Notes: generated from the sequence alone by a model not told the origin. A stretch of DNA of 64,000 bases from Patescibacteria group bacterium (GCA_038064495.1 JBBTSZ010000002.1:216934-280933); one strand, 5' to 3'; positions 2,962-61,472 are shown, counted from the first letter of the stretch. Program-made: numbers and translations.

Positions 2962-3909
2962 CTAGCGGGTCATGAGCCACTGGTAAATATCTTCCAAAGC
3001 CTTCACTGCATCTCCCGCAGCAATATTGTTTTGATGATAGAGCTCGTCGGTACAATCACCTGCAGCCCAGATGCCCGCAATGCTCGTGTGTTGGTTCTTT
3101 GGATCGGTAACGACACGGCCGACACTATCAAGTTCAAGGAAGTCTTTCGCAAAGTCAGTGTTTGGCATCACACCAATTTCTACGAACACACCTTCTACCG
3201 CGAGTGTGGTTTCAACACCTGAGTCGCGGTGCTTCACTTTGAGACCTGTTACAAACTTCTCACCGAGCACCTCGGTTGGCTCACTCTTATAGATAACCTT
3301 GAAGTTTGGATTCTTGGTAAGACGCTCCACCGTAATTTCGTCCCCTTTGAGTGCATCATGACGATGGATGAGCGTAACGCTCTTACAGTAGGCAAGGAGC
3401 TGAGCGGCCGTTTCTAGACCTGCGTTCCCGCCACCTACGACTGCGACATCAAGATCTGCATAGAGAGGTCCATCACAGGAAGCACAATAGGTGACTCCTT
3501 TGTTTTCAAATACGTCAGCACCCGGAATAGCGAGCTTCCTGCGAGCGGCACCAGAAGCAACAAGGACGGAACGTGCAGAAAGGACTTTCCCATCACGAGT
3601 GGTGACTTTAAAAGCACCGTTATCCTTCTCTAGTTTTTCCACTCGGTCACCTTCTACAACTTCTACAATCTCTCCTTTATATGCCTCAAGGTGTGTCTTG
3701 AAGGAATGAGCGAGCTCACTCCCGGGGATTTTAATCGTACCAATCCAGTTTTCAATTCCTTCTGATACGGTGGACTGTCCACCGATTTCTTCTGCTATTA
3801 AAACAGACTTGAGACGCTTACGCGCAGCGTAGACACCGGCGGACACACCCGCGGGTCCTCCGCCAATAATGATGAGGTCATGCATAGTCTCCCGAGTATA
3901 CCAAAACAC
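2962..3909 (-). CDS. trxB: thioredoxin-disulfide reductase
   Basis: GGGPAGVSAG FAD motif, CASC redox dicysteine, VVGGGNAGLE NAD motif. Confidence 0.9.
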   Translation of the reverse strand: MFWYTRETMHDLIIIGGGPAGVSAGVYAARKRLKSVLIAEEIGGQSTVSEGIENWIGTIKIPGSELAHSFKTHLEAYKGEIVEVVEGDRVEKLEKDNGAFKVTTRDGKVLSARSVLVASGAARRKLAIPGADVFENKGVTYCASCDGPLYADLDVAVVGGGNAGLETAAQLLAYCKSVTLIHRHDALKGDEITVERLTKNPNFKVIYKSEPTEVLGEKFVTGLKVKHRDSGVETTLAVEGVFVEIGVMPNTDFAKDFLELDSVGRVVTDPKNQHTSIAGIWAAGDCTDELYHQNNIAAGDAVKALEDIYQWLMTR

Positions 3910-18765: not shown

Positions 18766-18882
18766 GCATCCCGTTAGAAATCGCGGACGCTCATCTACAT
18801 ACAACATGATCGACATTTATAGAACTAATCGAGTGGGGTACGGAGGCACGAAGCTGTCCGCGTCCTATTTCTAACGGGATGC
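18766..18882. other. 117-nt element closed by a 16-bp perfect long-range inverted repeat (GCATCCCGTTAGAAAT ... ATTTCTAACGGGATGC) with an inner 7-bp helix; overlaps the annotated start of the downstream methyltransferase
   Basis: Seen in the sequence; a candidate structured RNA or cis-regulatory element. Confidence 0.4.
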
Positions 18883-19421
18883 ACCTTGCAGATCTCTTTA
18901 GTAATCCGACAAAAAACGTACTACAGATGGGGCTCACTGAAGGTATGAAAGTCGGAGACTTAGGCGCAGGTTCTGGACACTATGCGCTTGCCGCTGCACA
19001 TCTTGTGGGGCCATCCGGTCGTGTCTACGCGCTTGATGTCCAAGAAGATATCTTGAAGCACATCCGGGACGCGGCAAAAGAAAAAAAGCTACAGAATATT
19101 GAGACTATCTGGGGCGATTTCCAGTATCCAGGCGGTACGCGTCTTACCGATCATATTCTTGATGCGGTTATATTATCTAATACCCTGTTTCAAGTAGAAG
19201 AAAAACAAACGGCAGTTGCTGAAATGAGACGGATATTGAAACCGGGTGGCAAGGTGCTCGTATGTGACTGGGCCGGAAGTTACAGTGGTATGGGTCCGCA
19301 TCCCGAACACATTGTGTCAGAACATGATGCCGAAGAATTGTTCATCACGGCTGGTTTTCATAAGACGAAAACGTGGCGTGGCGGCCCACATCATTACGCA
19401 ATACTATTTATGTCTCCCTAA
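18879..19421 (+). CDS. class I SAM-dependent methyltransferase (start uncertain; alternative Met at 18927)
   Basis: Motif I VGDLGAGSGHYAL, post-I acidic ALDVQ, LKPGGKVLVCDW. Confidence 0.7.
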   Translation: MHLADLFSNPTKNVLQMGLTEGMKVGDLGAGSGHYALAAAHLVGPSGRVYALDVQEDILKHIRDAAKEKKLQNIETIWGDFQYPGGTRLTDHILDAVILSNTLFQVEEKQTAVAEMRRILKPGGKVLVCDWAGSYSGMGPHPEHIVSEHDAEELFITAGFHKTKTWRGGPHHYAILFMSP

Positions 19422-20750: not shown

Positions 20751-21266
20751 ATGCAAATTAAATGGCAAGAAGCCACCTCACTCATTCCACTTTTGCTCTT
20801 AGGTTTATGTAGCTTTACGTTTTCGGCTCAGGCTGCGGCAACAATTCCAGGCGTAATCTTTGAGAATGATCCTCCAGCGAAGACAACGGTTCTTCTGCCG
20901 TCTGCATCAACTCCCGCACCAACAAAACCAGCTACGCCAGGTGCAACTGGAGCCACTTCTCCGGGCGCGGCAACTGGCCAGACATCAACTCAGTCTGGTT
21001 CGCCAACAGGTCTCCAAAATCCGCTTCAGGCAGGAACACTTGAAGAGCTTCTTACTGCGATTCTTAAGGGCGTTGTAGCGATTGGTGCCATATTCCTTAC
21101 CTTTATGATTATCTATGTCGGCTTCCTCTTTGTAGCTGCGCGCGGGAACGAAGAAAAAATACGTGATGCGCGTCAAGCACTTGTCTGGACCGTGATTGGA
21201 GGACTCCTTTTGCTTGGTGCTGAAGCCATAAGTCTGGTCATTCAGTCTACGGCGCAAACGTTATGA
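20751..21266 (+). CDS. pilin-like paralogue P1: signal peptide, Pro/Thr/Ala-rich linker, two TM helices (VirB2/TrbC-like topology)
   Basis: Signal peptide plus the conserved two-TM module shared with the next four ORFs (..F..GF..V...GNEEK.R....L.W..IG). Confidence 0.55.
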   Translation: MQIKWQEATSLIPLLLLGLCSFTFSAQAAATIPGVIFENDPPAKTTVLLPSASTPAPTKPATPGATGATSPGAATGQTSTQSGSPTGLQNPLQAGTLEELLTAILKGVVAIGAIFLTFMIIYVGFLFVAARGNEEKIRDARQALVWTVIGGLLLLGAEAISLVIQSTAQTL

Positions 21267-21589
21267 GCCCCTTCACAAGACTGTTTTCGCTGCTTCCCGC
21301 ATTTCTGTTCGTACTCATTCCACTGCACAGCGCTTTTGCGGCAACTCCCACGTTTGAAGAGTGGGTAAATAACACTGCAGTTGGATTCGTTGATTCCTAT
21401 GTGATACCGCTCCTCTACGCAGTTGCGTTCCTTGTTTTTATGTTCGGTGCCTTTCGCTACTTCTTTACCGGCGGGGAGGAAAACAGGGAAAAGGGACGTG
21501 CTTTTCTCCTTTGGTCCATTATCGGCATGGTCGCAATATTTTCCGTGTGGGGCGTCGTGAATCTACTCCTTACTGCTCTTCCGCAGTAA
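21263..21589 (+). CDS. pilin-like paralogue P2
   Basis: AFLVFMFGAFRYFFTGGEENREKGRAFLLWSIIGMVAIFSVWGVVNLL module; signal peptide; 4-nt overlap with P1. Confidence 0.6.
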   Translation: MSPFTRLFSLLPAFLFVLIPLHSAFAATPTFEEWVNNTAVGFVDSYVIPLLYAVAFLVFMFGAFRYFFTGGEENREKGRAFLLWSIIGMVAIFSVWGVVNLLLTALPQ

Positions 21590-21638
21590 CGTGTATAACT
21601 GCTTGATTCACGCCAAGCGCTTGCTAGGCTTCATCTAT

Positions 21639-22319
21639 ATGACACATTTCCGTACCCTACTCACCGGCATTTCAGCTGTGGCGCTTCTGTTTATCGTTAA
21701 CGTTCCGCATGCCCTTGCACAAACAGCAACCAATAGCTCAGCACCCATAGACCAGCTGGGTCAATTCTTACAACAGTTCATTCGCTTTTTTGACCTCTAT
21801 CTGGTCCCGCTCATATTTGCACTCGCCTTCATCGTGTTCTTGTGGGGCGTCTATCGGTACCTCATTCTTGGTGCTGACAACGAGGAGAAACGTCAGGAGG
21901 GTCAAAAGTTCATCATGTATGGCCTTATCGGTTTCTTCATCATGATTTCAATTTGGGGGATTGTTAATTTACTTGTCGGTTCGCTTGGTTTCGGAAATGA
22001 TCAGCGTCCCAATCTTCCGACCTTCGGTTCACCCTCTCAATCAGGAAGTAACGGTTCAAAGATTCTTCCAAGCAGTCCGTCAGTAAACACGACTGGATCT
22101 GCCAATACGAGCGGAGGTTCTGTTACCCCGGGAAACACGTCTACAGACTGTCGTTCTGACGGTGTGTGTCCTGCTAACACCGTTTGTTCGTTTAGCGGTA
22201 CGCAAGCAGGGCAATGTATAACCACGAACCCTCAAGATTGTCGTCTTCCGAACACAGCCTGTCCTTCAGGATACGTGTGTAACGCAAACAATGGTCTCTG
22301 TAAATTGAATTCAATATAG
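21639..22319 (+). CDS. pilin-like paralogue P3 with a C-terminal Ser/Thr/Gly linker and an 8-Cys extracellular domain
   Basis: Module AFIVFLWGVYRYLILGADNEEKRQEGQKFIMYGLIGFFIMISIWGIVNLL, then CRSDGVCPANTVCSFSGTQAGQCITTNPQDCRLPNTACPSGYVCNANNGLC. Confidence 0.6.
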   Translation: MTHFRTLLTGISAVALLFIVNVPHALAQTATNSSAPIDQLGQFLQQFIRFFDLYLVPLIFALAFIVFLWGVYRYLILGADNEEKRQEGQKFIMYGLIGFFIMISIWGIVNLLVGSLGFGNDQRPNLPTFGSPSQSGSNGSKILPSSPSVNTTGSANTSGGSVTPGNTSTDCRSDGVCPANTVCSFSGTQAGQCITTNPQDCRLPNTACPSGYVCNANNGLCKLNSI

Positions 22320-29403: not shown

Positions 29404-30576
29404 ATGTTGGGGAAACCGAAACGAGTGTATCTAGACTGGGCAGCAAGCGCCCCTATAAGCGGGCGCGCCAAAAGCGTCCTCTCGGCTTCTCTTGGTGTCT
29501 TTGGAAACCCAGGCGCTCTCCACCAGGAGGCACAGGTTGCAAGAGTACTGCTTGAAGAAGCTCGGACGAAGCTTGCTCGCCTTGTAGAGGTGAAAGAAGA
29601 TGGCGTTATCTTTACTTCAGGAGCGACCGAAGCAAACGCACTTGCCATACTCGGTCTCGTTCGCGCAGAAGTACAAAAGGGCAGTCGACTTCCCCACGTG
29701 CTGTATCATCCGGGAGCGCACGCGTCGCTCGTTGGTTCAATAGCGATGCTTAAGGAAGGGGGTGTTGAGATTGAGGCACTACCCCTTAGTAAGGGAGCGG
29801 TTGATTTGGAAAAGCTTGTCACGACACTCAAACCAACGACCACGCTTGTCGTGCTTGAAGCGGTGTGTGGTGAAACGGGTATGGTCTACGACACCCGTGG
29901 TGTCAGGCGCGCGCTTGATGCCTACGCAAAGAAAACAGGTACCCGTATCTACCTGCATGTGGACGCGAGTCAGGCGCCCCTTACGCAGAATCTCACGCTC
30001 GCGCACCTTGGCGCTGACCTTGTCACACTAGACGCGCAGAAGGTGGGTGGGGTTCGTGGTATCGGTGCACTCCTGCTTCGTCAGCACATCACCCTTGTTC
30101 CACTCATGCGTGGCGGTGGCCAAGAAGGCGGACGACGTCCGGGAACTGAGAATCCGGTTCTTGCGCATGCATTTGTAACTGCACTCACTGAAGTGCAAAA
30201 GAATAGAGAAGTGTTTACGAAAGAAGGTACACGACTGCGTGCACACCTGACGAAACTGCTTACGGAGATTCCTCGGTTAGAGGTGAACGAGCATAGCGAG
30301 AACGTCCCGAACATTCTCAACATCTCACTTCTGGGTCGGGATACTGACTATGCGGTGATGCTTCTGGATGCTTCTGGATTTGCAGTTTCAACGAAGAGCG
30401 CGTGCGAGACAGACGAACAAGGTTCTCGCCCAGTTGCTCTCATGAAGGATACGGAACATGCAGAAACAACACTCCGTATTTCATGGGGTCCGGGAATAAC
30501 GGAAAAAGAACTTGTGCGCTTCGCCTCTACGCTTGTGGGTGTGACTCGGTTCCTGGACGAGAAAGCGTTATACTAA
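29404..30576 (+). CDS. cysteine desulfurase / class-V aminotransferase (IscS/NifS-like)
   Basis: LDWAASAP, FTSGATEANA, the PLP-Lys region TLDAQKVGGVRGIGAL, and a C-terminal ...SACE Cys loop. Confidence 0.8.
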   Translation: MLGKPKRVYLDWAASAPISGRAKSVLSASLGVFGNPGALHQEAQVARVLLEEARTKLARLVEVKEDGVIFTSGATEANALAILGLVRAEVQKGSRLPHVLYHPGAHASLVGSIAMLKEGGVEIEALPLSKGAVDLEKLVTTLKPTTTLVVLEAVCGETGMVYDTRGVRRALDAYAKKTGTRIYLHVDASQAPLTQNLTLAHLGADLVTLDAQKVGGVRGIGALLLRQHITLVPLMRGGGQEGGRRPGTENPVLAHAFVTALTEVQKNREVFTKEGTRLRAHLTKLLTEIPRLEVNEHSENVPNILNISLLGRDTDYAVMLLDASGFAVSTKSACETDEQGSRPVALMKDTEHAETTLRISWGPGITEKELVRFASTLVGVTRFLDEKALY

Positions 30577-30582
30577 CGACAT

Positions 30583-31344
30583 ATGAATCTAGAAGACCTG
30601 AACAAAAGCCAACTCCTCCTGCTCACGGTATTGGTGAACTTCGTGACCTCTATTGCGGTCGGTGTGCTGACTGTGTCACTCCTCGACCAGGCACCGCCTA
30701 CGGTCACTCAGACCGTAAATCGTATCGTGGACCACACAGTAGAAACGATTGCCTCCACGACGCCGATTCAGACCTTCATACCGATACCGTCTAAACCCAC
30801 AACGGTAGTGATTCATGATGAGGATCTGCTCACGGCAGCACTTGCTGCTGATGTTTCTCGAACTGTACGCCTCTATGTGAGATCAACCAGTACTCCTGCC
30901 GTTGCTATCGGCACCTATCTACCAAACGCACGTGCGGTTGCAACGGCAACAACGCTCGGTTTGCCACGAGAAATTATCGTCGCCTTTTCTGATGGTTCAA
31001 GTGCACCTGCATCTCTCTCACGTGCAGGAGCGACCCTCACCATTTACGGATTCTCCGACACGAGTGCACTGCCGAAAGTCCCGGTACCAAATCTCATCTC
31101 ACGTACGGACGTAAAGCAGGGACAGACGGTCCTTGCAATTGGAAGCGGCGGAAGTGCCTTTACCGGTATTGTTTCAAAGATAGACGACTTTATTCATACC
31201 AGCCTCATGAATATTCCGGTTGGTGCAGCCGCCGTCAGTAGTTCGGGCAATATCGTTGGTATCTCCATTGATGGAGCCGGCACGTTTGCAAGTGCCGACA
31301 AGATAACCATTCTTTTGAGTGCAACATCTTCGCCCGCAAAGTAG
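30583..31344 (+). CDS. membrane-anchored hypothetical protein, possibly a degenerate trypsin-like fold
   Basis: N-terminal TM; GQTVLAIGSGGSAFTGIVS is HtrA-like but has no obvious catalytic triad. Confidence 0.35.
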   Translation: MNLEDLNKSQLLLLTVLVNFVTSIAVGVLTVSLLDQAPPTVTQTVNRIVDHTVETIASTTPIQTFIPIPSKPTTVVIHDEDLLTAALAADVSRTVRLYVRSTSTPAVAIGTYLPNARAVATATTLGLPREIIVAFSDGSSAPASLSRAGATLTIYGFSDTSALPKVPVPNLISRTDVKQGQTVLAIGSGGSAFTGIVSKIDDFIHTSLMNIPVGAAAVSSSGNIVGISIDGAGTFASADKITILLSATSSPAK

Positions 31345-31357
31345 TATTACTTGATAT

Positions 31358-34030
31358 ATGCCTCCTTTCAAAAACTTCACCACCAAAGCAAAAGAAGCCA
31401 TTCGTAAGGCCCACGAACTCGCTATTGAGCGAGGTCAAAATCATGTAAGCCCACTTCACCTCCTTGCGGCCCTCATTCATCAGGAAGAAAGCATGGTGTT
31501 CTCAGTCCTTGACCGCATGGACATTGATACGATGCTTTTGGCTGACACCGTACTTGAAACCCTTGAAGCACCTGAGACAAGCGCAACTTTGTCGCCGTCG
31601 TACCAGCTCTATCTTACCCCAGACCTCGCTCAAGCACTTGAGTCAGCGGGAAAAGTAGCGGCACGCATGAACGATTCGTTCATTGGTACCGAGCATCTTT
31701 TTGTAGCAGTGCTTGAAAACCCTGGTCCAGCAACCGAAATTATCGGACGGTTCAAGATTGATGACGAAACCGTGATTTCCATCTTGAAAGAATTGAAATC
31801 AACCAAAGACGGACACACCGGCGAGCAAAAACGTTTTCGTGCGCTCGCAAAGTACACCCGTAACTTAACAAAGCTTGCGGCAGACAACGCGCTTGATCCA
31901 GTTATTGGTCGTGATCAAGAAATTAGTCGCGTGATTCAGATTCTCTCCCGTCGCACGAAGAATAACCCGGTTTTGATTGGTGAAGCAGGAGTCGGAAAGA
32001 CGGCGATTGCCGAGGGGCTCGCGGCGCGTATGGCAGCCGGAGACTTGCCGGAGTCTCTCAAAGGCAAGGAGCTCCTCTCCCTTGACCTTGGTCTCATGAT
32101 TGCGGGCACGAAGTACCGTGGCGAGTTTGAAGAGCGTATGAAGAGCGTGATGAAAGAAGTAGAAAAGGCGCAAGGCAAAGTCATCCTTTTTATTGATGAA
32201 CTCCACACGCTTGTGGGAGCCGGCGCCGCTGAAGGTGCGATGGATGCTTCTAACATGCTGAAGCCTGCCCTTGCACGTGGTGAATTCCGCATTATTGGAG
32301 CGACAACCCTGAAGGAGTATCAGCAACACATTGAAAAAGACACCGCACTCACACGCCGTTTCCAGCCGGTGTTTGTGAATGAACCCTCAGATGAAGACGC
32401 GGTTGCAATTCTTCGTGGACTGCGTGATAAGTACGAGCTCTTCCACGGGGTGCGTATTACTGACGGCGCGATTGTGTCTGCGGTAGAACTTTCCTCTCGC
32501 TACATCACCGACCGGTTCCTTCCAGACAAGGCCATTGATCTTATCGATGAGGCTGCGTCAGGTCTGCGTATTGCACTTGAGAACAAACCCCCCCTACTTG
32601 AAGAAACAGATAGACGTATTCGTCGTCTTGAAATAGAACGCCAGGCACTTCTGAAAGATATCAGCGGGGAACACGGAAAAGAGATTAAAGACCGTGTGAA
32701 GAAGATTGACCTCGAGGTTGCAGACCTGAAAGAAAAGACAGGCGAGCTAGAGCTCAAGTGGAAAAATGAAAAAGAAGTGCTCCACGCTATTCGTGAAATA
32801 AAAGGAGAGCTCGAGAAGCTCCGTGTACAGGCAGATAATGCCGAAGCAAGTGCGGACCTTGGTGTTGCGGCAGAGATTCGTTACGGACGCATACCCATGC
32901 TGGAAAAAGAACTTGATACCAAGATGAAGCGTTTGAAGACGCTCCAGAAGTCTCGTCGTGTACTCCACGAAGAAGTGACTGAGCACGAAATCGCCGGGGT
33001 CGTCTCTCGCTGGACCGGCATTCCCGTATCCAAAATGCTTGAGGAAGAGGCGGTAAAACTTGCTCGTATGGAGGAAGCACTTCGCGCAGCCGTGATTGGC
33101 CAGGATAAGGCCGTGAAAGTCATCACGGACGCGGTGAAGCGTTCTCGCGTGGGTATTGCAGACCCGAACCGTCCTATTGGCTCCTTCCTCTTTATGGGAC
33201 CTACGGGAGTCGGTAAGACCGAACTTTCGCGCAAGCTCGCTGAGTTTATGTTTAACGACACCGAAGCTCTCGTGCGGGTGGACATGTCTGAGTTTATGGA
33301 GAAGCACTCTATTTCAAAATTGATTGGTGCACCTCCTGGCTATGTGGGCTACGAAGAAGCGGGTAGCTTGACTGAGCGCATTCGTCATCGACCGTATGCC
33401 GTTATTCTCTTTGATGAAATAGAGAAGGCACATCCTGAAGTGTTTAACATTCTTCTTCAAGTACTTGATAACGGCCACCTCACAGATGGAAAGGGACGGA
33501 AGGTAAATTTCAAGAACACCATCATTGTGCTTACTTCAAATATTGGTGCTGAGTTTATCGATAGAATGGCGAACATTGGTTTCGGCGTGAGTTCAGGTGA
33601 TGACGTAGCTCAGTATGAACAAGTGAAAGAGAAAGTACTGGTTGCGCTCAAAGACCGATTCCGTCCGGAATTCCTCAACCGTCTTGATGAAATCGTCATC
33701 TTTGATGTGCTCTCTAAGGAATCTCTCGCAAGCATTGTTGAGAATCAAGTGAAGGACGTCGTGAAGCGTCTGTCTGGAAAACGCATTAACCTTTCCATCT
33801 CACCTGAGGTGCGTGCGTGGCTTGCTGACAAAGGCTACAACCCACAGTATGGTGCGCGCCCATTGAAGCGTGCGATTCAGGACAAGATTCTCACTCCTAT
33901 AGCTTCGCTCATGGTAGGCAAGGGCATCATGGAAGGAGGCACCGTAGAAGTTGTGATGAAGAATGGCGAGCCGCATTTTGAGGTGAAGAAGTCGGCAACG
34001 CGCGCAAAGAAAGTCCCGGTACGCGCCTAA
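31358..34030 (+). CDS. clpB: ATP-dependent chaperone ClpB
   Basis: Two AAA+ modules ([30 protein letters not shown]) with a long middle coiled coil; 890 aa. Confidence 0.9.
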
Positions 34031-34033
34031 GGC

Positions 34034-34741
34034 ATGGAAACTGAACAAAACGAGCGCCAGGAACTGGAGCAGCTTTCTCGCGAACTTGTTGATGAGGCAG
34101 TGCTTGTTGAATACAAACAGACCTACGATAACTATCACATCTCGTTTATTCCGAGCATGCTTGGAGCCGTACTCGTGTTCTCCGGGAATCTAGTCTACGG
34201 AAAACGTCCTTCCTATATGAAGTTTCGTGCGGTGGAGGTTATCGCACGAGTTCCCTATCATTCATGGAGCTCAGCGGCATACACACTCCTCACCATGTTC
34301 TACAGCAACGAGCAGAAAGCACTGAAGCTGTCTGAAGTCTCGCAATTCTCACGCATTGCGCAGGATAACGAAACCATGCACGTGGTGGTCATTTCTAAAC
34401 TAGCCTGTCTGGAACACCGCGTGAATTTTTTCGTACACACCCTTATTCCGATGATTTTTGCGTTCTTCTACTTCTGGGCTTCCTACATTTTGTATTTGAT
34501 TAACCGAAAGTATTCACTTGAGCTCAATTATTGTTTTGAGCAACACGCGTTTGATCAATACAATCAGTTTCTGAAGGAGAACGAGGAAGCGCTCAAAGGG
34601 AAGCCGATAGAGAGTGAATTTCTTTCGTGGTACGGCAGAAATCCCACCAACCAGTACGATTTCTTTATGGGCGTCCGGAATGACGAAATCATCCATCGTA
34701 ATATGTCGGCGCATGTGCTTCAGGGTCTGAAGAAGAAGTAG
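34034..34741 (+). CDS. alternative-oxidase-like membrane-associated diiron carboxylate protein (AOX/PTOX family)
   Basis: Four spaced iron-ligand motifs: AVEVIARVP, QDNETMHVVV (E..H), LELNYCFEQHA (E..H), RNDEIIHRNMS (DE..H); hydrophobic mid-region. Confidence 0.55.
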   Translation: METEQNERQELEQLSRELVDEAVLVEYKQTYDNYHISFIPSMLGAVLVFSGNLVYGKRPSYMKFRAVEVIARVPYHSWSSAAYTLLTMFYSNEQKALKLSEVSQFSRIAQDNETMHVVVISKLACLEHRVNFFVHTLIPMIFAFFYFWASYILYLINRKYSLELNYCFEQHAFDQYNQFLKENEEALKGKPIESEFLSWYGRNPTNQYDFFMGVRNDEIIHRNMSAHVLQGLKKK

Positions 34742-34760
34742 CAATACTCTCGGATGTTCA

Positions 34761-34894
34761 GTTTTCGGGCACGTGTCGCCTTGACCTGCGACAAGGCGTA
34801 CTCGCTCTCGCTGTGCCAGCTTGGCAATTCCGGTGCAGACTGTCTACGGCACCAGAATTGCCAAGCTGGCACAGCTCCGAGAGTCCCGAAAACC
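34761..34894. other. roughly 135-nt composite hairpin: a 25-bp near-perfect stem (34812-34836/34849-34873) extended by ctctcg/cgagag and outer ttttcggg/cccgaaaa pairing, plus a side hairpin CGCCTTG/CAAGGCG
   Basis: Seen in the sequence between the AOX-like stop and the rpmG start. Confidence 0.6.
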
Positions 34895-34963
34895 TAACAC
34901 CCTCGGTACCTGCCGTACTGGCCCTGGATTGCGGTACGGAGCGGGATTTGGTAAGGTGGGGCT

Positions 34964-35119: not shown

Positions 35120-35173
35120 GAAAAGCCCCTTGGGGGCTCCTTTCTTTGTATACAAGCCACGATTCTATGCTAC

Positions 35174-36589: not shown

Positions 36590-37588
36590 ATGCGGAGATA
36601 TCTCCTTCCAGCGCTCCTTGCGCTCTGTATAGTGTTTCTGCCGAGTATTGCGTCAGCAGAGTCTAATGCAGGAATCTTCGCGCCAGTCATTTCTGACGTC
36701 TGCACGTGTCCAGGCACTGCTCCTGGTTTTGGATGCATTCTAGACACCATACAGAACCTTCTTAACCTCGGCGTCTCACTTTCAGCGATGCTTGCGGTGC
36801 TCATCATTGCCTACGCAGGTACCCTTCTCATCTTTAACCCAACCAAACCGGAGTACCGGACACAAGCGAAAGGCATGCTCGCGAATGTTGCCATAGGCAT
36901 GGTCATCGTACTCGCCTCCTGGCTCATCGTTGATTTTGTGATGAAGATTGTCTACAACCCCGGTGCGGTATTTTCGGGAAATGTTATTGGACCTTGGAAC
37001 GATATTCTTGGTGGTGGCGAGGCCTGTATTGTTGCTCAACAACTCGACACCATCTTTGATGGAAATCTAGTGACGACGCCGACGACCGATGTGGCTGCAA
37101 GTGGAGGTGTACTCACCAACTCTGGAAAAGGAGCTTGTAATGCAATAACGGTTGCACAAAGTGCCGCCGCAGGTGGAGCACGCATGTCCACACAGGAGGC
37201 GAACATTCTTGCCTGCGTGGCAGGTCCGGAAAGCCAATGTGGTGCAGTGTTACAAAACTATAATTGGAACGGCGCAAAAAGCTATCCACCTTCAACCGCG
37301 TACGGGCCCTTTCAGATTACACTCAAAGGAAACAGCGGCTGTTTTGAGAATGCAGCTTGCTATCAAGCCGCCGGTGTTAGTGGATCGCTAAACTGTGATG
37401 CAGCGTTTGATTCAAAAGGCTATGCAATTCCCGGTGCCAGGCTTGAACAGTGCAAGCGTGCCGCCGCGAACCTCACGTGTAGTTCGGTTGCTGCAGATTG
37501 TGTATATCGTAAGCAAGGTGCAAGTGCGTGGACAGCTGATAAAAGTAGTTCAAAGCAACAGGCGTGCATCTCTGGTAATGGAGGCTAA
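36590..37588 (+). CDS. pilin-like N-terminal module (signal peptide, CxCPG...GC, two TM helices) fused to a Cys-rich C-terminal domain with a possible lysozyme/lytic-transglycosylase-like motif
   Basis: The N-domain is paralogous to that of the 38156..39100 ORF. The C-domain has ...QEANILACVAGPESQCGAV...STAYGPFQI (E-S ... A.G..Q resembles the SLT/lysozyme-like signature). Confidence 0.5.
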   Translation: MRRYLLPALLALCIVFLPSIASAESNAGIFAPVISDVCTCPGTAPGFGCILDTIQNLLNLGVSLSAMLAVLIIAYAGTLLIFNPTKPEYRTQAKGMLANVAIGMVIVLASWLIVDFVMKIVYNPGAVFSGNVIGPWNDILGGGEACIVAQQLDTIFDGNLVTTPTTDVAASGGVLTNSGKGACNAITVAQSAAAGGARMSTQEANILACVAGPESQCGAVLQNYNWNGAKSYPPSTAYGPFQITLKGNSGCFENAACYQAAGVSGSLNCDAAFDSKGYAIPGARLEQCKRAAANLTCSSVAADCVYRKQGASAWTADKSSSKQQACISGNGG

Positions 37589-38155: not shown

Positions 38156-39100
38156 ATGTGTAGATTCCTCATCCCACTTCTCGTCACGGTCTTCCTCATA
38201 GGAATACCACTCATGGCACAGGCTGCCGATACCAGTTTCTTTGGCCCTATCGTTCCGACACAATGTAATTGTCCGGGTGAAGCCCCGGGTCTTGGCTGCA
38301 TTCTTGAAAGCCTCCGGCTTTTGATGAACCTCATCATTTCCATCGCCTGTGTGTTCCTTACGCTCATCATTGCGTACGGTGGCCTCCTTTTCATGATGGG
38401 TGCGACGAACCCCTCGCAACGCGAGACCGGTAGGAACGTGCTCATCAACGGTTTCATCGGTATTGTCATCGTCTTGTCGGCCTGGCTCCTGGTTGATTTC
38501 ATTATGAAGCGTCTGTATAACTCAAACTCTTTCGGACCGTGGAACTCTATTTTGCTCGGTCAAGGAGAGCTCTGTCTGCATAAACAACAAACCGGAGAAA
38601 TATTTACTGGAAATATTGTAGTAACTCCAACCACAAACCCTGGTTCTGCGGGTGGGGCAGGTGGAAGTGGTGGGAGTGGTGCAAATTGTCCTGCCGCTGA
38701 CCCTGGAAGCATGGTTAACTTTCCAGCTTCAGCAACCTCAGGTGCGGCCGAGAAGGCAACTCCTACAACCGTGCAGAATTTCCTTGCCATGCGAGCTGCT
38801 GCACTTAAAGAAGGTATTGATTTAAAAGTAACGGATGGATATCGATCTGAGTCCGAACAAATAGCTCTGTGGGATAGATATGGGCACGACACCAGCCAGG
38901 CAGCTCGACCTTGTACGCTCGGAGGTGGTGGGTCAAATCACAACTCTGGAACGGCGGTTGACCTGACCGTCGGTTGTGCCAAGACGGATAGTTCGTGCAA
39001 CAGTCCACAGTACCGCTGGTTGAAGGCAAATGGTTCCAAGTGGAATTTTAGAAACGCACTTCCAACTGATACGGTGCACTGGTCGCCAAGTGGTACCTAA
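38156..39100 (+). CDS. pilin-like N-terminal module fused to an M15/VanY-type D,D-peptidase (LAS metallopeptidase) domain
   Basis: The N-domain shares CNCPGEAPGLGCILESL...IIAYGG...GIVIVLSAWLLVDFIMK..YN...FGPWN with the 36590 ORF. The C-domain has SNHNSGTAVDL (SxHxxGxAxD) and TVHWSPSG, preceded by a Gly-rich linker. Confidence 0.6.
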   Translation: MCRFLIPLLVTVFLIGIPLMAQAADTSFFGPIVPTQCNCPGEAPGLGCILESLRLLMNLIISIACVFLTLIIAYGGLLFMMGATNPSQRETGRNVLINGFIGIVIVLSAWLLVDFIMKRLYNSNSFGPWNSILLGQGELCLHKQQTGEIFTGNIVVTPTTNPGSAGGAGGSGGSGANCPAADPGSMVNFPASATSGAAEKATPTTVQNFLAMRAAALKEGIDLKVTDGYRSESEQIALWDRYGHDTSQAARPCTLGGGGSNHNSGTAVDLTVGCAKTDSSCNSPQYRWLKANGSKWNFRNALPTDTVHWSPSGT

Positions 39101-39995: not shown

Positions 39996-40661
39996 ATGAA
40001 CAAAAACAGCCAGAAAAGCAATTATTGCGAAGCGTGCGGAGATTTCCATGATGCCGGACACGACGGAGCCTCCTTTGTACAGATCGGGGAAGTCATTCCA
40101 GACTACGAGTTTGAAATCTTCCATAAGGACGACCAAAAGACGGTAAAGTTTTCTGACTATCGCGGCAAATGGCTCGTGGTGATGTTTTATCCGGGCGACT
40201 TCACCTTTGTGTGTCCAACGGAGCTTGAGGATATGGCAAAGCTCTATCCGAAGTTTCAAGAAATGAATACGGAAGTACTCTCTTTTTCTACGGACACGGT
40301 CTACGTACACAAGGCGTGGCATGACACTTCTGCCGCTATCAAACAGGTGAACTATCCAATGGGTTCAGACCCGTCTGGTAAGATTTCCTTTGCCTTCGGT
40401 ACGCTTATTGAAGGAGGAGATATGGCGCATACACCAGATGAAGGCCAGTCTCGACGCGGCACATTTGTTATTGACCCCTCGGGAGTGCTTCGTACGATAG
40501 AAATTCATGACAATAGCATTGGGCGGCGCGCAGGCGAAACACTTCGCAAGGTACAGGCAGCGCAGTACGTGGAGGCCCATCCAGGTAATGTCTGCCCGGC
40601 AAGTTGGGAGGAAGGCGACGACACACTGGAACCGGGCATGGATCTTGTAGGTAAGATTTAG
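39996..40661 (+). CDS. peroxiredoxin (AhpC/TSA family) with an N-terminal Cys/His-rich extension
   Basis: FTFVCPTE peroxidatic-Cys motif; WLVVMFYPGDF. Confidence 0.8.
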   Translation: MNKNSQKSNYCEACGDFHDAGHDGASFVQIGEVIPDYEFEIFHKDDQKTVKFSDYRGKWLVVMFYPGDFTFVCPTELEDMAKLYPKFQEMNTEVLSFSTDTVYVHKAWHDTSAAIKQVNYPMGSDPSGKISFAFGTLIEGGDMAHTPDEGQSRRGTFVIDPSGVLRTIEIHDNSIGRRAGETLRKVQAAQYVEAHPGNVCPASWEEGDDTLEPGMDLVGKI

Positions 40662-60152: not shown

Positions 60153-61472
60153 ATGAACGTTGACGCAGCGACTGCCGATCGGCAGACAGCAAAGTACCGT
60201 CTCGGCCGGATGTTGACGGAAGGAAAGACAAAGAAGCTTCATGAAGCGAAGGACAAGCCCGGGATTGTTATTGTAATTTCCAAAGACGACATTACTGCCG
60301 GCGACGGCAAGAAGCACGATATTATTGTAGGCAAAGCTAACCTTGCGACCGAAACGACCTGCAACGTTTTTGAATTGCTCAAGGCGTGCGATATTCCAAT
60401 CGCTTACATTGAGCGCGATAACGTAAACTCGTTTATTGCCTATCACACTGACATGCTTCCGTACGAAGTCGTCGTCAGGCGTGAGGCGCACGGCTCATAC
60501 CTGAAAAGCTATCCGCATTTGCAGAAGGGACATCTTTTCCAAAAGCTCGTCGTGCAGTTCTTCCTGAAAACGAAGGACCGTCGCTGGAAAGAACACACGC
60601 TTGTCTGCGACGACCCCCTGATGCTGCATCGGGAGGGTGCGGGCAAGATTGAGCTCTATAATCCTGCGGAGTCACTCCGAGGCCAGAAACCCTTCCTCAT
60701 CCTCGACGAGATGGAAGTGTTCGGGTATGCCGAGGAATGGCATTGCTTCAAGGAAATGCAATCAATTGCTACCAAGACGTTCCTCGTGCTCGAGCGAGCC
60801 TGGGAGCTCGAAGGCGGCAAGCTGGTCGACTTCAAGGTTGAATTTGGTTTTGACCCGACGGGAAACCTGGTTCTCTCAGATGTTATCGACAATGACTCGT
60901 GGCGCGTGGTTGAAGACGGCGCGTATCTCGACAAGCAAGTCTATCGAGATGGTGGAGACATCAAGGAGGTGGCAAACAAGTACGAGCGCGTCGCCAACAT
61001 CACCAGTCGTTTTCGCCTCCCGAGTCAGCGCATCATCCTATGGTGCGGCTCTGAATCAGATGTCACCAAGCCATTTCATGATGCGCTTGGGGGCTTCCGA
61101 GATTTACTGACCGAGGTGGTGTGCTCAGCACATAAGGAGCCGCAAGCTGCAGTCTCTATTATTCAGAGCACGGTGCATGCGTATCCAAACTCGGTTGTGA
61201 TTGCCTACATCGGCAGAAGCAACGGGGCTGGCCCCATCCTGTCAGCGCAATCAACGGTACCGGTCATTACGGTGCCTGCGAGTGTGAAGGACTTTCCGGA
61301 TGATGTGTGGTCTTCACTTCGTGCACCAAGTAAGGTGCCGGTGATGACCGTGCTTGAGCCGACGAATGCCGTGCTTGCTACACTGCAAATTCTTTCGGCT
61401 CGAAATCCTCGCATCTATGCGCATTTGCGCCAAGAAGTGGAAACTCGTTTGATTAACACTATCCCACTGTAG
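60153..61472 (+). CDS. bifunctional SAICAR synthetase (PurC-like) / AIR carboxylase (PurE-like) fusion, PAICS-like arrangement
   Basis: The N-domain LTEGKTKKLHEA...GKANLATETTC..FELL resembles PurC. The C-domain RIILWCGSESD...VCSAHKEP...AYIGRSNGAGPILSAQSTVPVITVP resembles PurE. Confidence 0.65.
   Translation: MNVDAATADRQTAKYRLGRMLTEGKTKKLHEAKDKPGIVIVISKDDITAGDGKKHDIIVGKANLATETTCNVFELLKACDIPIAYIERDNVNSFIAYHTDMLPYEVVVRREAHGSYLKSYPHLQKGHLFQKLVVQFFLKTKDRRWKEHTLVCDDPLMLHREGAGKIELYNPAESLRGQKPFLILDEMEVFGYAEEWHCFKEMQSIATKTFLVLERAWELEGGKLVDFKVEFGFDPTGNLVLSDVIDNDSWRVVEDGAYLDKQVYRDGGDIKEVANKYERVANITSRFRLPSQRIILWCGSESDVTKPFHDALGGFRDLLTEVVCSAHKEPQAAVSIIQSTVHAYPNSVVIAYIGRSNGAGPILSAQSTVPVITVPASVKDFPDDVWSSLRAPSKVPVMTVLEPTNAVLATLQILSARNPRIYAHLRQEVETRLINTIPL

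Follow-up and report, generated by a model that had tools for sequence, protein, structure and literature searches.

An alternative-oxidase-like diiron protein of Paceibacteria: a distinct lineage of the AOX/PTOX superfamily with a putative role as an oxygen sink

Introduction

A stretch of 64,000 nucleotides from a Patescibacteria group bacterium (GCA_038064495.1 JBBTSZ010000002.1:216934-280933), referred to here as the window, carries a gene for a 235-residue protein that resembles the alternative oxidases (AOX) and plastoquinol terminal oxidases (PTOX). At a rough probability of 60%, we propose that this gene encodes a monotopic quinol:O2 oxidoreductase, which would serve as an oxygen sink that runs on acquired quinone and conserves no energy. 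The same catalytic machinery is present here in a distinct, uncharacterised lineage and in an unusual physiological setting. The fold (in an AlphaFold model), the catalytic residues and the predicted membrane-binding helices are conserved, and from homology and context we infer the electron donor (a quinol), the product (water), the source of the quinone and the physiological role.

Bacteria in the candidate phyla radiation (CPR, or Patescibacteria) are commonly portrayed as anaerobes that ferment and lack electron transport, yet oxic habitats are home to many Paceibacteria, which also grow there. An O2-reducing enzyme of a single subunit, conserved in at least 268 species, would give this group a simple and widespread means of handling oxygen. 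Public annotation pipelines already label genes of the window protein's clade 'alternative oxidase'. The literature on AOX or PTOX was searched for Patescibacteria, CPR and Parcubacteria, and no searchable paper that discusses these genes came up; a 2025 study on oxygen-related genes in CPR (PMC12577380) does not discuss them either.

The gene and its protein family

The oxidase gene (Table 1) starts with an ATG that follows the clpB stop codon (34028-34030) by three nucleotides. The upstream open reading frame (ORF) is ClpB by Pfam, which confirms that the gene lies directly behind clpB, as the original prediction, made from the sequence alone, had stated. The Pfam AOX family PF01786 scores 34.7 bits on the protein, above its gathering cut-off of 22.7 (E=1.9e-8), aligning residues 61-225 with profile positions 53-211 of 216; this match is far beyond chance. 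AOX was the sole Pfam family found, and an NCBIfam scan of the same protein gave no match.

The call of an AOX-like diiron protein is thus supported by a family score above its cut-off and, as set out below, by the invariance of six iron ligands and a tyrosine. All four motifs that had been quoted for it are found in the translation (AVE68VIARVP, NE113TMH116VV, FE169QH171A and RNDE218IIH221RN). The four-helix ligand pattern read from them was right at the E, ExxH and DE..H sites, whereas its third 'E..H' pair is really a single glutamate ligand, E169 (F-E169-Q-H171-A), in line with the AOX pattern E / ExxH / E / ExxH.

Conservation of the diiron site

Conservation was assessed in alignments of 27 close homologs (A1) and 56 superfamily representatives (A2), and in a set of 233 members of the window protein's own clade, termed clade A. 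The only invariant columns among the 56 sequences of A2 are E68, N112, E113, H116, E169, Y176, D217, E218 and H221. Within clade A, the six ligands (E68, E113, H116, E169, E218 and H221) are present in 233/233 members together with Y176, K63 and H171, and the same holds for A71, R72, P74, Y75 and W78. The loss of ligand residues on careful alignment, raised beforehand as a possible objection, was accordingly seen neither in the clade nor in the superfamily alignment. Altogether 43 positions are conserved in at least 98% of the 233 members, and the clade A oxidase is under strong purifying selection across hundreds of species.

A superfamily-wide profile matches the trypanosomal alternative oxidase of Trypanosoma brucei (TAO) with E=1.5e-13, and its alignment gives a one-to-one correspondence of the ligands and the tyrosine: E68 with TAO E123, E113/H116 with E162/H165, E169 with E213, Y176 with Y220, and E218/H221 with E266/H269. 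Further equivalences are K63 with R118, V/I67 of clade A with L122, H171 with E215, A172 with A216 and Q175 with T219. The roles of these TAO residues are those assigned in the TAO structure papers. Y176 thus occupies the position of the catalytic tyrosine, seven residues past the third ligand glutamate. H171 is a PTOX-like histidine that falls outside the six ligand positions of TAO. Successive ligand glutamates are separated by 45/56/49 residues in the window protein, and by 39/51/53 in TAO by residue numbering (E123, E162, E213, E266).

In TAO, the residues R118, L122, A216 and T219 reportedly line the inhibitor and quinol pocket (Shiba et al. 2013). The corresponding positions of clade A are conserved or conservatively replaced and are invariant within the clade (R118->K63, L122->V/I67, A216->A172, T219->Q175).

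Predicted fold and membrane association

An AlphaFold2 model built on A1 reached a mean pLDDT of 87.8 and a pTM of 0.87. In a Foldseek search of the PDB with this model, the best 14 matches were all TAO chains (probability 1.00, TM 0.51-0.57, 11-14% identity), and the next matches, including COQ7 (0.15) and bacterioferritin (0.12-0.15), had probabilities of at most 0.15. Among the viral models of BFVD the best matches were cyanophage PTOX (E=1.2e-6 and 5.5e-4, TMt 0.65-0.70, 23-24% identity). The root-mean-square deviation is high at 8-10 Å, indicating that the details differ.

Where the original prediction noted one hydrophobic membrane-association segment, two are present. Residues 36-56 have a mean Kyte-Doolittle hydropathy of 1.54 and coincide with model helix 38-55, and residues 132-157 have a mean of 1.59 and coincide with model helix 132-156. 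They appear to be the counterparts of the α-1 and α-4 membrane-binding helices of AOX. Two crossings of the bilayer would split the four ligand helices across the membrane, and an AOX-like monotopic arrangement is therefore the consistent reading of this predicted topology.

The model also bears on a different assignment within the diiron proteins, namely that of a hydroxylase, oxygenase or desaturase whose substrate would be lipophilic, for example a scavenged isoprenoid, a quinone precursor or a lipid. Such chemistry is performed by related ferritin-like diiron enzymes (COQ7, desaturases, N-oxygenases), a few members of clade A are labelled 'demethoxyubiquinone hydroxylase (Coq7 family)' by JGI, and the window encodes a generic UbiE/COQ5-like methyltransferase (18879-19421), although this scores far below any NCBIfam cut-off. 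COQ7, rubrerythrin and bacterioferritin do share the four-helix-bundle diiron carboxylate core with the window protein, but they lack the membrane helices and the catalytic tyrosine context of AOX and PTOX. No COQ7, rubrerythrin or other ferritin-like profile of Pfam or NCBIfam matches the protein, so that no other ferritin-like family lays claim to it; the Foldseek probability is 0.15 for COQ7 as against 1.00 for TAO and PTOX; neither the oxidase-specific tyrosine nor any ligand of the AOX/PTOX set varies; and no biosynthetic operon surrounds the gene. We regard a hydroxylase-type function as improbable.

Placement within the AOX/PTOX superfamily

An exhaustive profile search of 1.84 billion representative sequences returned 452 matches at E<=1e-3, of which 56 aligned full-length matches were used to compare motifs. 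These fall into three groups. Group A, the clade of the window protein, is characterised by KFRAVEVIARVPYHSW, QDNETMHVV, ELNxxFExHAxxQY and RNDEIIHRNxS, with a ligand spacing of 45/56/49. Group B, a sister group without a name, has LELxARVPYQxW, QDNEQWHL, FEDHAEHEY and DERxH at a spacing of 45/57/47. Group C has LETIARVPYF, NE(L/M)HHLLIM, ExHAxxTYDxFL and IRxDExEH, with a spacing of 39/52/64 or more in most members (50-105). Group C corresponds to PTOX, as one of its members matches 99 cyanophage records of 'plastoquinol terminal oxidase' at 39-43% identity.

Profile-profile comparison by hhalign related clade A to clade B with a probability of 99.9% (E=1e-34, 33% identity), to PTOX with 99.8% (E=1.3e-27, 29% identity), and to a TAO fragment with 2.9%. 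By tblastn the window protein directly matched a PTOX encoded by Synechococcus phage S-N03 (E=4e-4, 25.7% identity). In a neighbour-joining tree (199 columns, Poisson distance, rooted on TAO), which is a crude distance method, clade A received 100/100 bootstraps, clade B 72/100 and the union of both 100/100, apart from the PTOX-type group. On these sequence comparisons, the window protein belongs to the AOX/PTOX superfamily as a member of a distinct third lineage that is neither canonical AOX nor canonical PTOX. Clade A is the sister of clade B, with both placed nearer to PTOX than to AOX.

PTOX, which is found in cyanobacteria, cyanophages and plastids (IMMUTANS) and comprises the nearest characterised relatives, shares with clade A the Pfam family, the six ligands and the catalytic tyrosine, as well as 'ARVPY' after the first ligand glutamate, 'E-x-H-A' at the third, and a short overall length in its cyanophage and cyanobacterial forms. 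Clade A differs from it in having NETMHVV where PTOX has NE(L/M)HHLLIME, and a glutamine in place of the PTOX threonine before the catalytic tyrosine. The first and second ligand glutamates are 45 residues apart in the window protein, as compared with 38-43 and a single case of 46 in PTOX-type sequences. The third and fourth are 49 apart, as compared with 50-105 (n=33) and at least 64 in 27/33, and the extended segment that is specific to PTOX between these two residues is missing from the window protein. Finally, PTOX belongs to oxygenic phototrophs or their phages, whereas the window protein comes from a CPR bacterium that is not photosynthetic and offers no plastoquinone context.

AOX proper, comprising the mitochondrial enzymes, TAO and proteobacterial enzymes, resembles the window protein in its fold and in the spacing between helix 5 and helix 6, and both are presumably monotopic. 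Its signatures are LET(V/I)AGVPGM, NERMHL, LEEEA and RADEAxH, as opposed to VEVIARVPYHSW, NETMHV, FEQHA and RNDEIIH in the window protein, which is only 11-14% identical to TAO. The canonical AOX signatures LETVAGVPG, NERMHL and LEEEA were absent from all 56 aligned full-length matches; the top 150 matches were not all inspected. The nearest relative is clade B, which carries the name 'alternative oxidase' in Actinomycetota, Rokubacteria and others. Its ligand spacing is close to that of clade A, but its signatures NEQWHL, FEDHAEHEY and DERxH are different. Clades A and B are two large, uncharacterised prokaryotic lineages outside both textbook subfamilies.

Distribution and origin

The homologs form 1114 clusters at 90% identity. 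Those that bear names are entered either as 'MAG: alternative oxidase' (metagenome-assembled genomes, MAGs, of the Patescibacteria group, Paceibacterota, Minisyncoccota or Minisyncoccia) or as 'ubiquinol oxidase' in JGI records. When a single genome was scanned for each GTDB species, clade A was found in at least 268 species, and all 80 listed carriers belong to the Patescibacteria: Nomura-, Kaiser-, Yonath- and Adlerbacteria, Paceibacteria and Minisyncoccia, with a few labels that are evidently generic or wrong. Two of the contigs that carry the gene, locus L041 (JBLNCF010000017.1) and locus L065 (CAYZYJ010000007.1), and many binchicken MAGs of 'uncultured Candidatus Saccharibacteria' are titled Bacillota, Gammaproteobacteria or Saccharibacteria. 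These taxonomy labels of the submitters look unreliable because L041 is syntenic over ~17 kb with the Paceibacteria-like window.

Clade B is larger, at more than 5100 clusters at 90% identity. Its entries from Acidimicrobiales, Mycobacteriales and Solirubrobacteraceae bear the name 'alternative oxidase', and Rokubacteria carry it as well. The hosts of clade B are free-living, and many of them make menaquinone.

A small offshoot of clade A, 44-56% identical to other members, lies on archaeal contigs. One of its proteins (P0122) is encoded next to the split archaeal RNA polymerase genes in the order rpoH-rpoB''/B'-rpoA'/A''-L7Ae-nusA-S12 (locus L089), and a second (P0292) is encoded beside L11, S27ae and a GatE-like gene (L093). 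Since every other relative of P0122 is bacterial, these contigs suggest that the oxidase was transferred from Paceibacteria into an ultra-small, possibly DPANN-like archaeon.

The breadth of clade A also speaks to whether the gene might be a recent passenger or an assembly contaminant, for example from Proteobacteria, without an adapted role. A survey that recovered a single AOX match in CPR did attribute it to transfer from Proteobacteria (PMC9540462). The present data do not support that attribution, because the clade is large, monophyletic and unlike proteobacterial AOX. It is recovered in 100/100 neighbour-joining bootstraps, spans at least 268 species and is not nested within AOX of the proteobacterial type, whose signatures are missing from the 56 aligned full-length matches; the purifying selection on its conserved positions is strong; the GC content around the gene (0.49-0.50) equals that of the remaining window; and the neighbourhood is syntenic with that of another species at ordinary divergence. 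A passenger or contaminant is therefore very improbable. We conclude that the gene is a genuine one, native to its genome and inherited vertically, as indicated by the synteny with L041, in which the identity of the AOX-like protein matches that of its ordinary neighbours.

Genomic context and the electron donor

Several observations weigh against the proposed quinol oxidase. Pfam scans of ~60 ORFs in the 64-kb window revealed neither respiratory complexes nor genes for quinone biosynthesis or quinone reductases; the ORFs were housekeeping genes and CPR-typical proteins with T4SS-pilin domains, which bears out the earlier impression of a reduced, CPR-like region devoid of respiratory genes. 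Across 82 loci (10 kb on each side of the gene, 1511 clustered ORFs), no redox partner is conserved and no dehydrogenase or quinone gene recurs. Stress and redox genes lie near the oxidase in 17/82 loci, which is about the number expected by chance in a rough calculation. The family profile of clade A does not retrieve TAO by sequence: neither phmmer nor the clade profile found TAO among PDB sequences at E<=10, and it was reached only through the superfamily-wide profile. Lastly, the pocket changes T219->Q and E215->H are specific to the clade, and its substrate specificity may consequently differ.

In another account, the protein is an O2 reductase with this diiron fold that acts purely as an oxygen scavenger and whose electrons come from something other than a quinone, such as a soluble reductase linked to flavin or NAD(P)H, a rubredoxin-like protein or a thiol system. 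The lack of a quinone pathway or quinone reductase in the window would fit this account, as would a pocket residue unlike that of AOX and PTOX alike (Q175 for T219), and a gene for riboflavin kinase lies ~1 kb downstream of the oxidase in 10-11/82 loci. A clade B member (P0149, locus L088) is encoded in a cluster with Fur/PerR, four rubrerythrins, rubredoxin and MsrAB. CPR genomes in general lack quinone biosynthesis (PMC8407418). On the other side, the membrane helices and pocket positions are strictly conserved, as would be needed for a lipophilic substrate that enters from the membrane, and no soluble partner is conserved beside the gene in the 82 loci. No characterised member of the superfamily is known to use anything but a quinol. 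We consider a non-quinone donor unlikely, if less so than a hydroxylase.

Recurrent neighbours across the 82 loci are housekeeping genes (pilM/N, ruvX, ruvA, L19, murC-like and uppS). A divergent protein of ~155 residues with an N-terminal pair of hydrophobic helices and no Pfam match is encoded 50-80 bp upstream of the oxidase in ~10/82 loci (examples in Table 1). Some single loci have suggestive neighbours: a PQQ-type GSDH protein with AhpC and MsrA in L004, DHO_dh with a DprE1/ALO-like flavoenzyme in L006, and GroESL with HtpX in L001. Like the rubrerythrin cluster of clade B, they are not general. The frequency of stress and redox genes, being about that of chance, was rejected as functional evidence. 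For the deep-branching members P0125, P0126 and P0142, the flanking sequence is too short to be of use in this comparison. The DHO_dh protein of L006 and L010 (two loci of one genome) was considered as a quinone-dependent class, to which its NCBIfam scores, far below the cut-off, do not allow it to be assigned; its gene recurs in just 2 of the loci. The window itself encodes two oxidative-stress proteins, an AhpC-like peroxiredoxin (39996-40661) and a 315-residue TrxR/AhpF-like flavoprotein (2962-3909). This context, like the clade B stress cluster, is in keeping with the proposed oxygen sink.

Proposed function

In the mechanism that we favour, oxidation of quinol by a monotopic diiron oxidase, the four-helix bundle would hold a two-iron centre (E68, E113/H116, E169, E218/H221) beside the putatively redox-active Y176, and the two hydrophobic helices would immerse the protein in a single membrane leaflet. 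If it works as AOX and PTOX do, electrons would be taken from membrane quinol for the four-electron reduction of O2 to water, with no protons pumped. The lineage appears to be without a respiratory chain and quinone synthesis, and the context therefore points to an oxygen sink or redox valve, comprising one enzyme, that would use a quinone probably acquired from the host or the surroundings. Such a sink could help fermentative episymbionts to tolerate oxic habitats.

A quinol-dependent terminal oxidase had been called unexpected in a bacterium of this kind. It has more precedent than this suggests, since cytochrome bo3 ubiquinol oxidase operons have been reported in soil Saccharibacteria, Doudnabacteria and Parcubacteria, in genomes without quinone biosynthesis, and were proposed to be an adaptation to oxic habitats (PMC8407418). 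Cytochrome bo3 poses the same puzzle as clade A, that of a quinol-dependent O2 reductase in the absence of quinone biosynthesis. It is, however, an unrelated, multi-subunit and proton-pumping haem-copper enzyme, whereas clade A would be a single 235-residue diiron enzyme without energy conservation. Kaiser- and Nomurabacteria, both among the carriers of clade A, have been found to grow in oxic incubations (PMC12577380). Clade A thus sharpens the question of where a quinone-less symbiont obtains its quinol, which bears on host dependence and on strategies for cultivation. The enzyme is small and easily expressed, making the hypothesis directly testable.

More tentatively, and at odds that we would put well below even, clades A and B could together constitute a third functional branch of the superfamily, which in Paceibacteria and a few archaea would provide a stand-alone oxygen sink on pirated host quinols or on a donor other than ubiquinol and plastoquinol, for example menaquinol. 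If so, supposedly obligate fermenters would possess a one-protein 'respiratory chain'. This would explain the persistence of Paceibacteria in oxic soils, lakes and groundwater, and would imply a direct metabolic dependence on host quinones.

The clpB gene string and neighbouring features

The oxidase gene is the last of a tight co-directional string that also comprises an iscS-like gene, a gene for a 253-residue protein and clpB (Table 1), and these genes are probably co-transcribed. The string brings together Fe-S and sulfur mobilisation, ClpB and a diiron oxidase, an arrangement that is kept in L041. In that locus, from one other species, the whole neighbourhood is syntenic and the gap between clpB and the oxidase gene is 7 nt.

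Table 1. Coordinates of the oxidase gene, its sequence features and neighbouring elements.
Feature	Position	Strand	Evidence
Predicted PTOX/AOX-like membrane-bound diiron carboxylate oxidase, clade A Paceibacteria type, 235 aa	34034..34741	+	ORF, Pfam PF01786, AlphaFold2, Foldseek, 1114 homologs
Hydrophobic helix, putative counterpart of AOX α-1 membrane-binding helix, residues 36-56	34139..34201	+	Hydropathy, model, full-length structural alignment to TAO
Helix-1 ligand motif K63-F-R-A-V-E68-V-I-A-R-V-P-Y-H-S-W	34220..34267	+	Profile alignment to TAO; clade conservation
N112-E113-T-M-H116, first ExxH ligand pair (TAO E162/H165)	34367..34381	+	A2, TAO and clade alignments
Hydrophobic helix, putative counterpart of AOX α-4 membrane-binding helix, residues 132-157	34427..34504	+	Hydropathy, model
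F168-E169-Q-H171-A172-F-D-Q175-Y176, ligand E169 and catalytic Tyr Y176	34535..34561	+	TAO and clade alignments
N216-D217-E218-I-I-H221-R-N, second ExxH ligand pair (TAO E266/H269)	34679..34702	+	A2, TAO and clade alignments
iscS-like (IscS/NifS-like cysteine desulfurase)	29404-30576	+	Pfam
253-aa protein, N-terminal hydrophobic segment, no family match	30583-31344	+	ORF
clpB, 890 aa	31358..34030	+	Pfam AAA_2, AAA_lid_9, ClpB_D2-small, Clp_N
Near-perfect hairpin, 27-nt arms, 12-nt loop	34810..34875	+	~70 nt past AOX-like stop, before rpmG
Ribosomal protein L33 (rpmG), 51 aa	34964-35119		Pfam E=1.2e-10
~155-aa two-TM (two hydrophobic helices) protein, examples from other loci; absent from window	L025:9439-9900, L070:9448-9909, L042:9463-9921

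Ordinary genes share 60-74% identity with their counterparts in L041, whereas ClpB, AhpC and L33 share 85-90% (90% for ClpB) and the AOX-like protein shares 61%. The difference between ClpB and the oxidase might be taken to mean that the AOX gene had been swapped into the clpB locus. This was rejected, since the other neighbours are 60-74% identical and ClpB, AhpC and L33 are then simply slow-evolving. Among the 82 loci, clpB is found near the oxidase gene in four, directly adjacent in two and within 4 kb in two more; the adjacency is lineage-specific and there is no family-wide operon.

The 222-nt spacer behind the oxidase gene (34742-34963) holds a long hairpin and folds at -110.8 kcal/mol (z = -6.9). 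The hairpin is present as a single copy in the window and is missing from L041, where the spacer measures 44 bp. Rfam assigned it to no family and gave sub-threshold matches to miRNA precursors, an artefact that long hairpins produce in general. Its role may be to terminate the gene string or to stabilise its RNA; alternatively, it may mark where a small element was inserted. The short L33 ORF that follows is easily missed by length filters, and a terminator-like hairpin lies behind it at 35124-35138.

Five T4SS_pilin proteins, typical surface or pilus genes of CPR, are encoded in the window (20751-21266, 21263-21589, 21591-22319, 36590-37588 and 38156-39100), the last of them fused to a VanY D-Ala-D-Ala carboxypeptidase domain. 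The copies beside the oxidase gene share just 36-38% identity with the corresponding L041 proteins and hence evolve fast. Further downstream, a 439-residue ORF (60153-61472) joins SAICAR synthetase (PurC) and AIR carboxylase (PurE) in an apparent PurC-PurE fusion.

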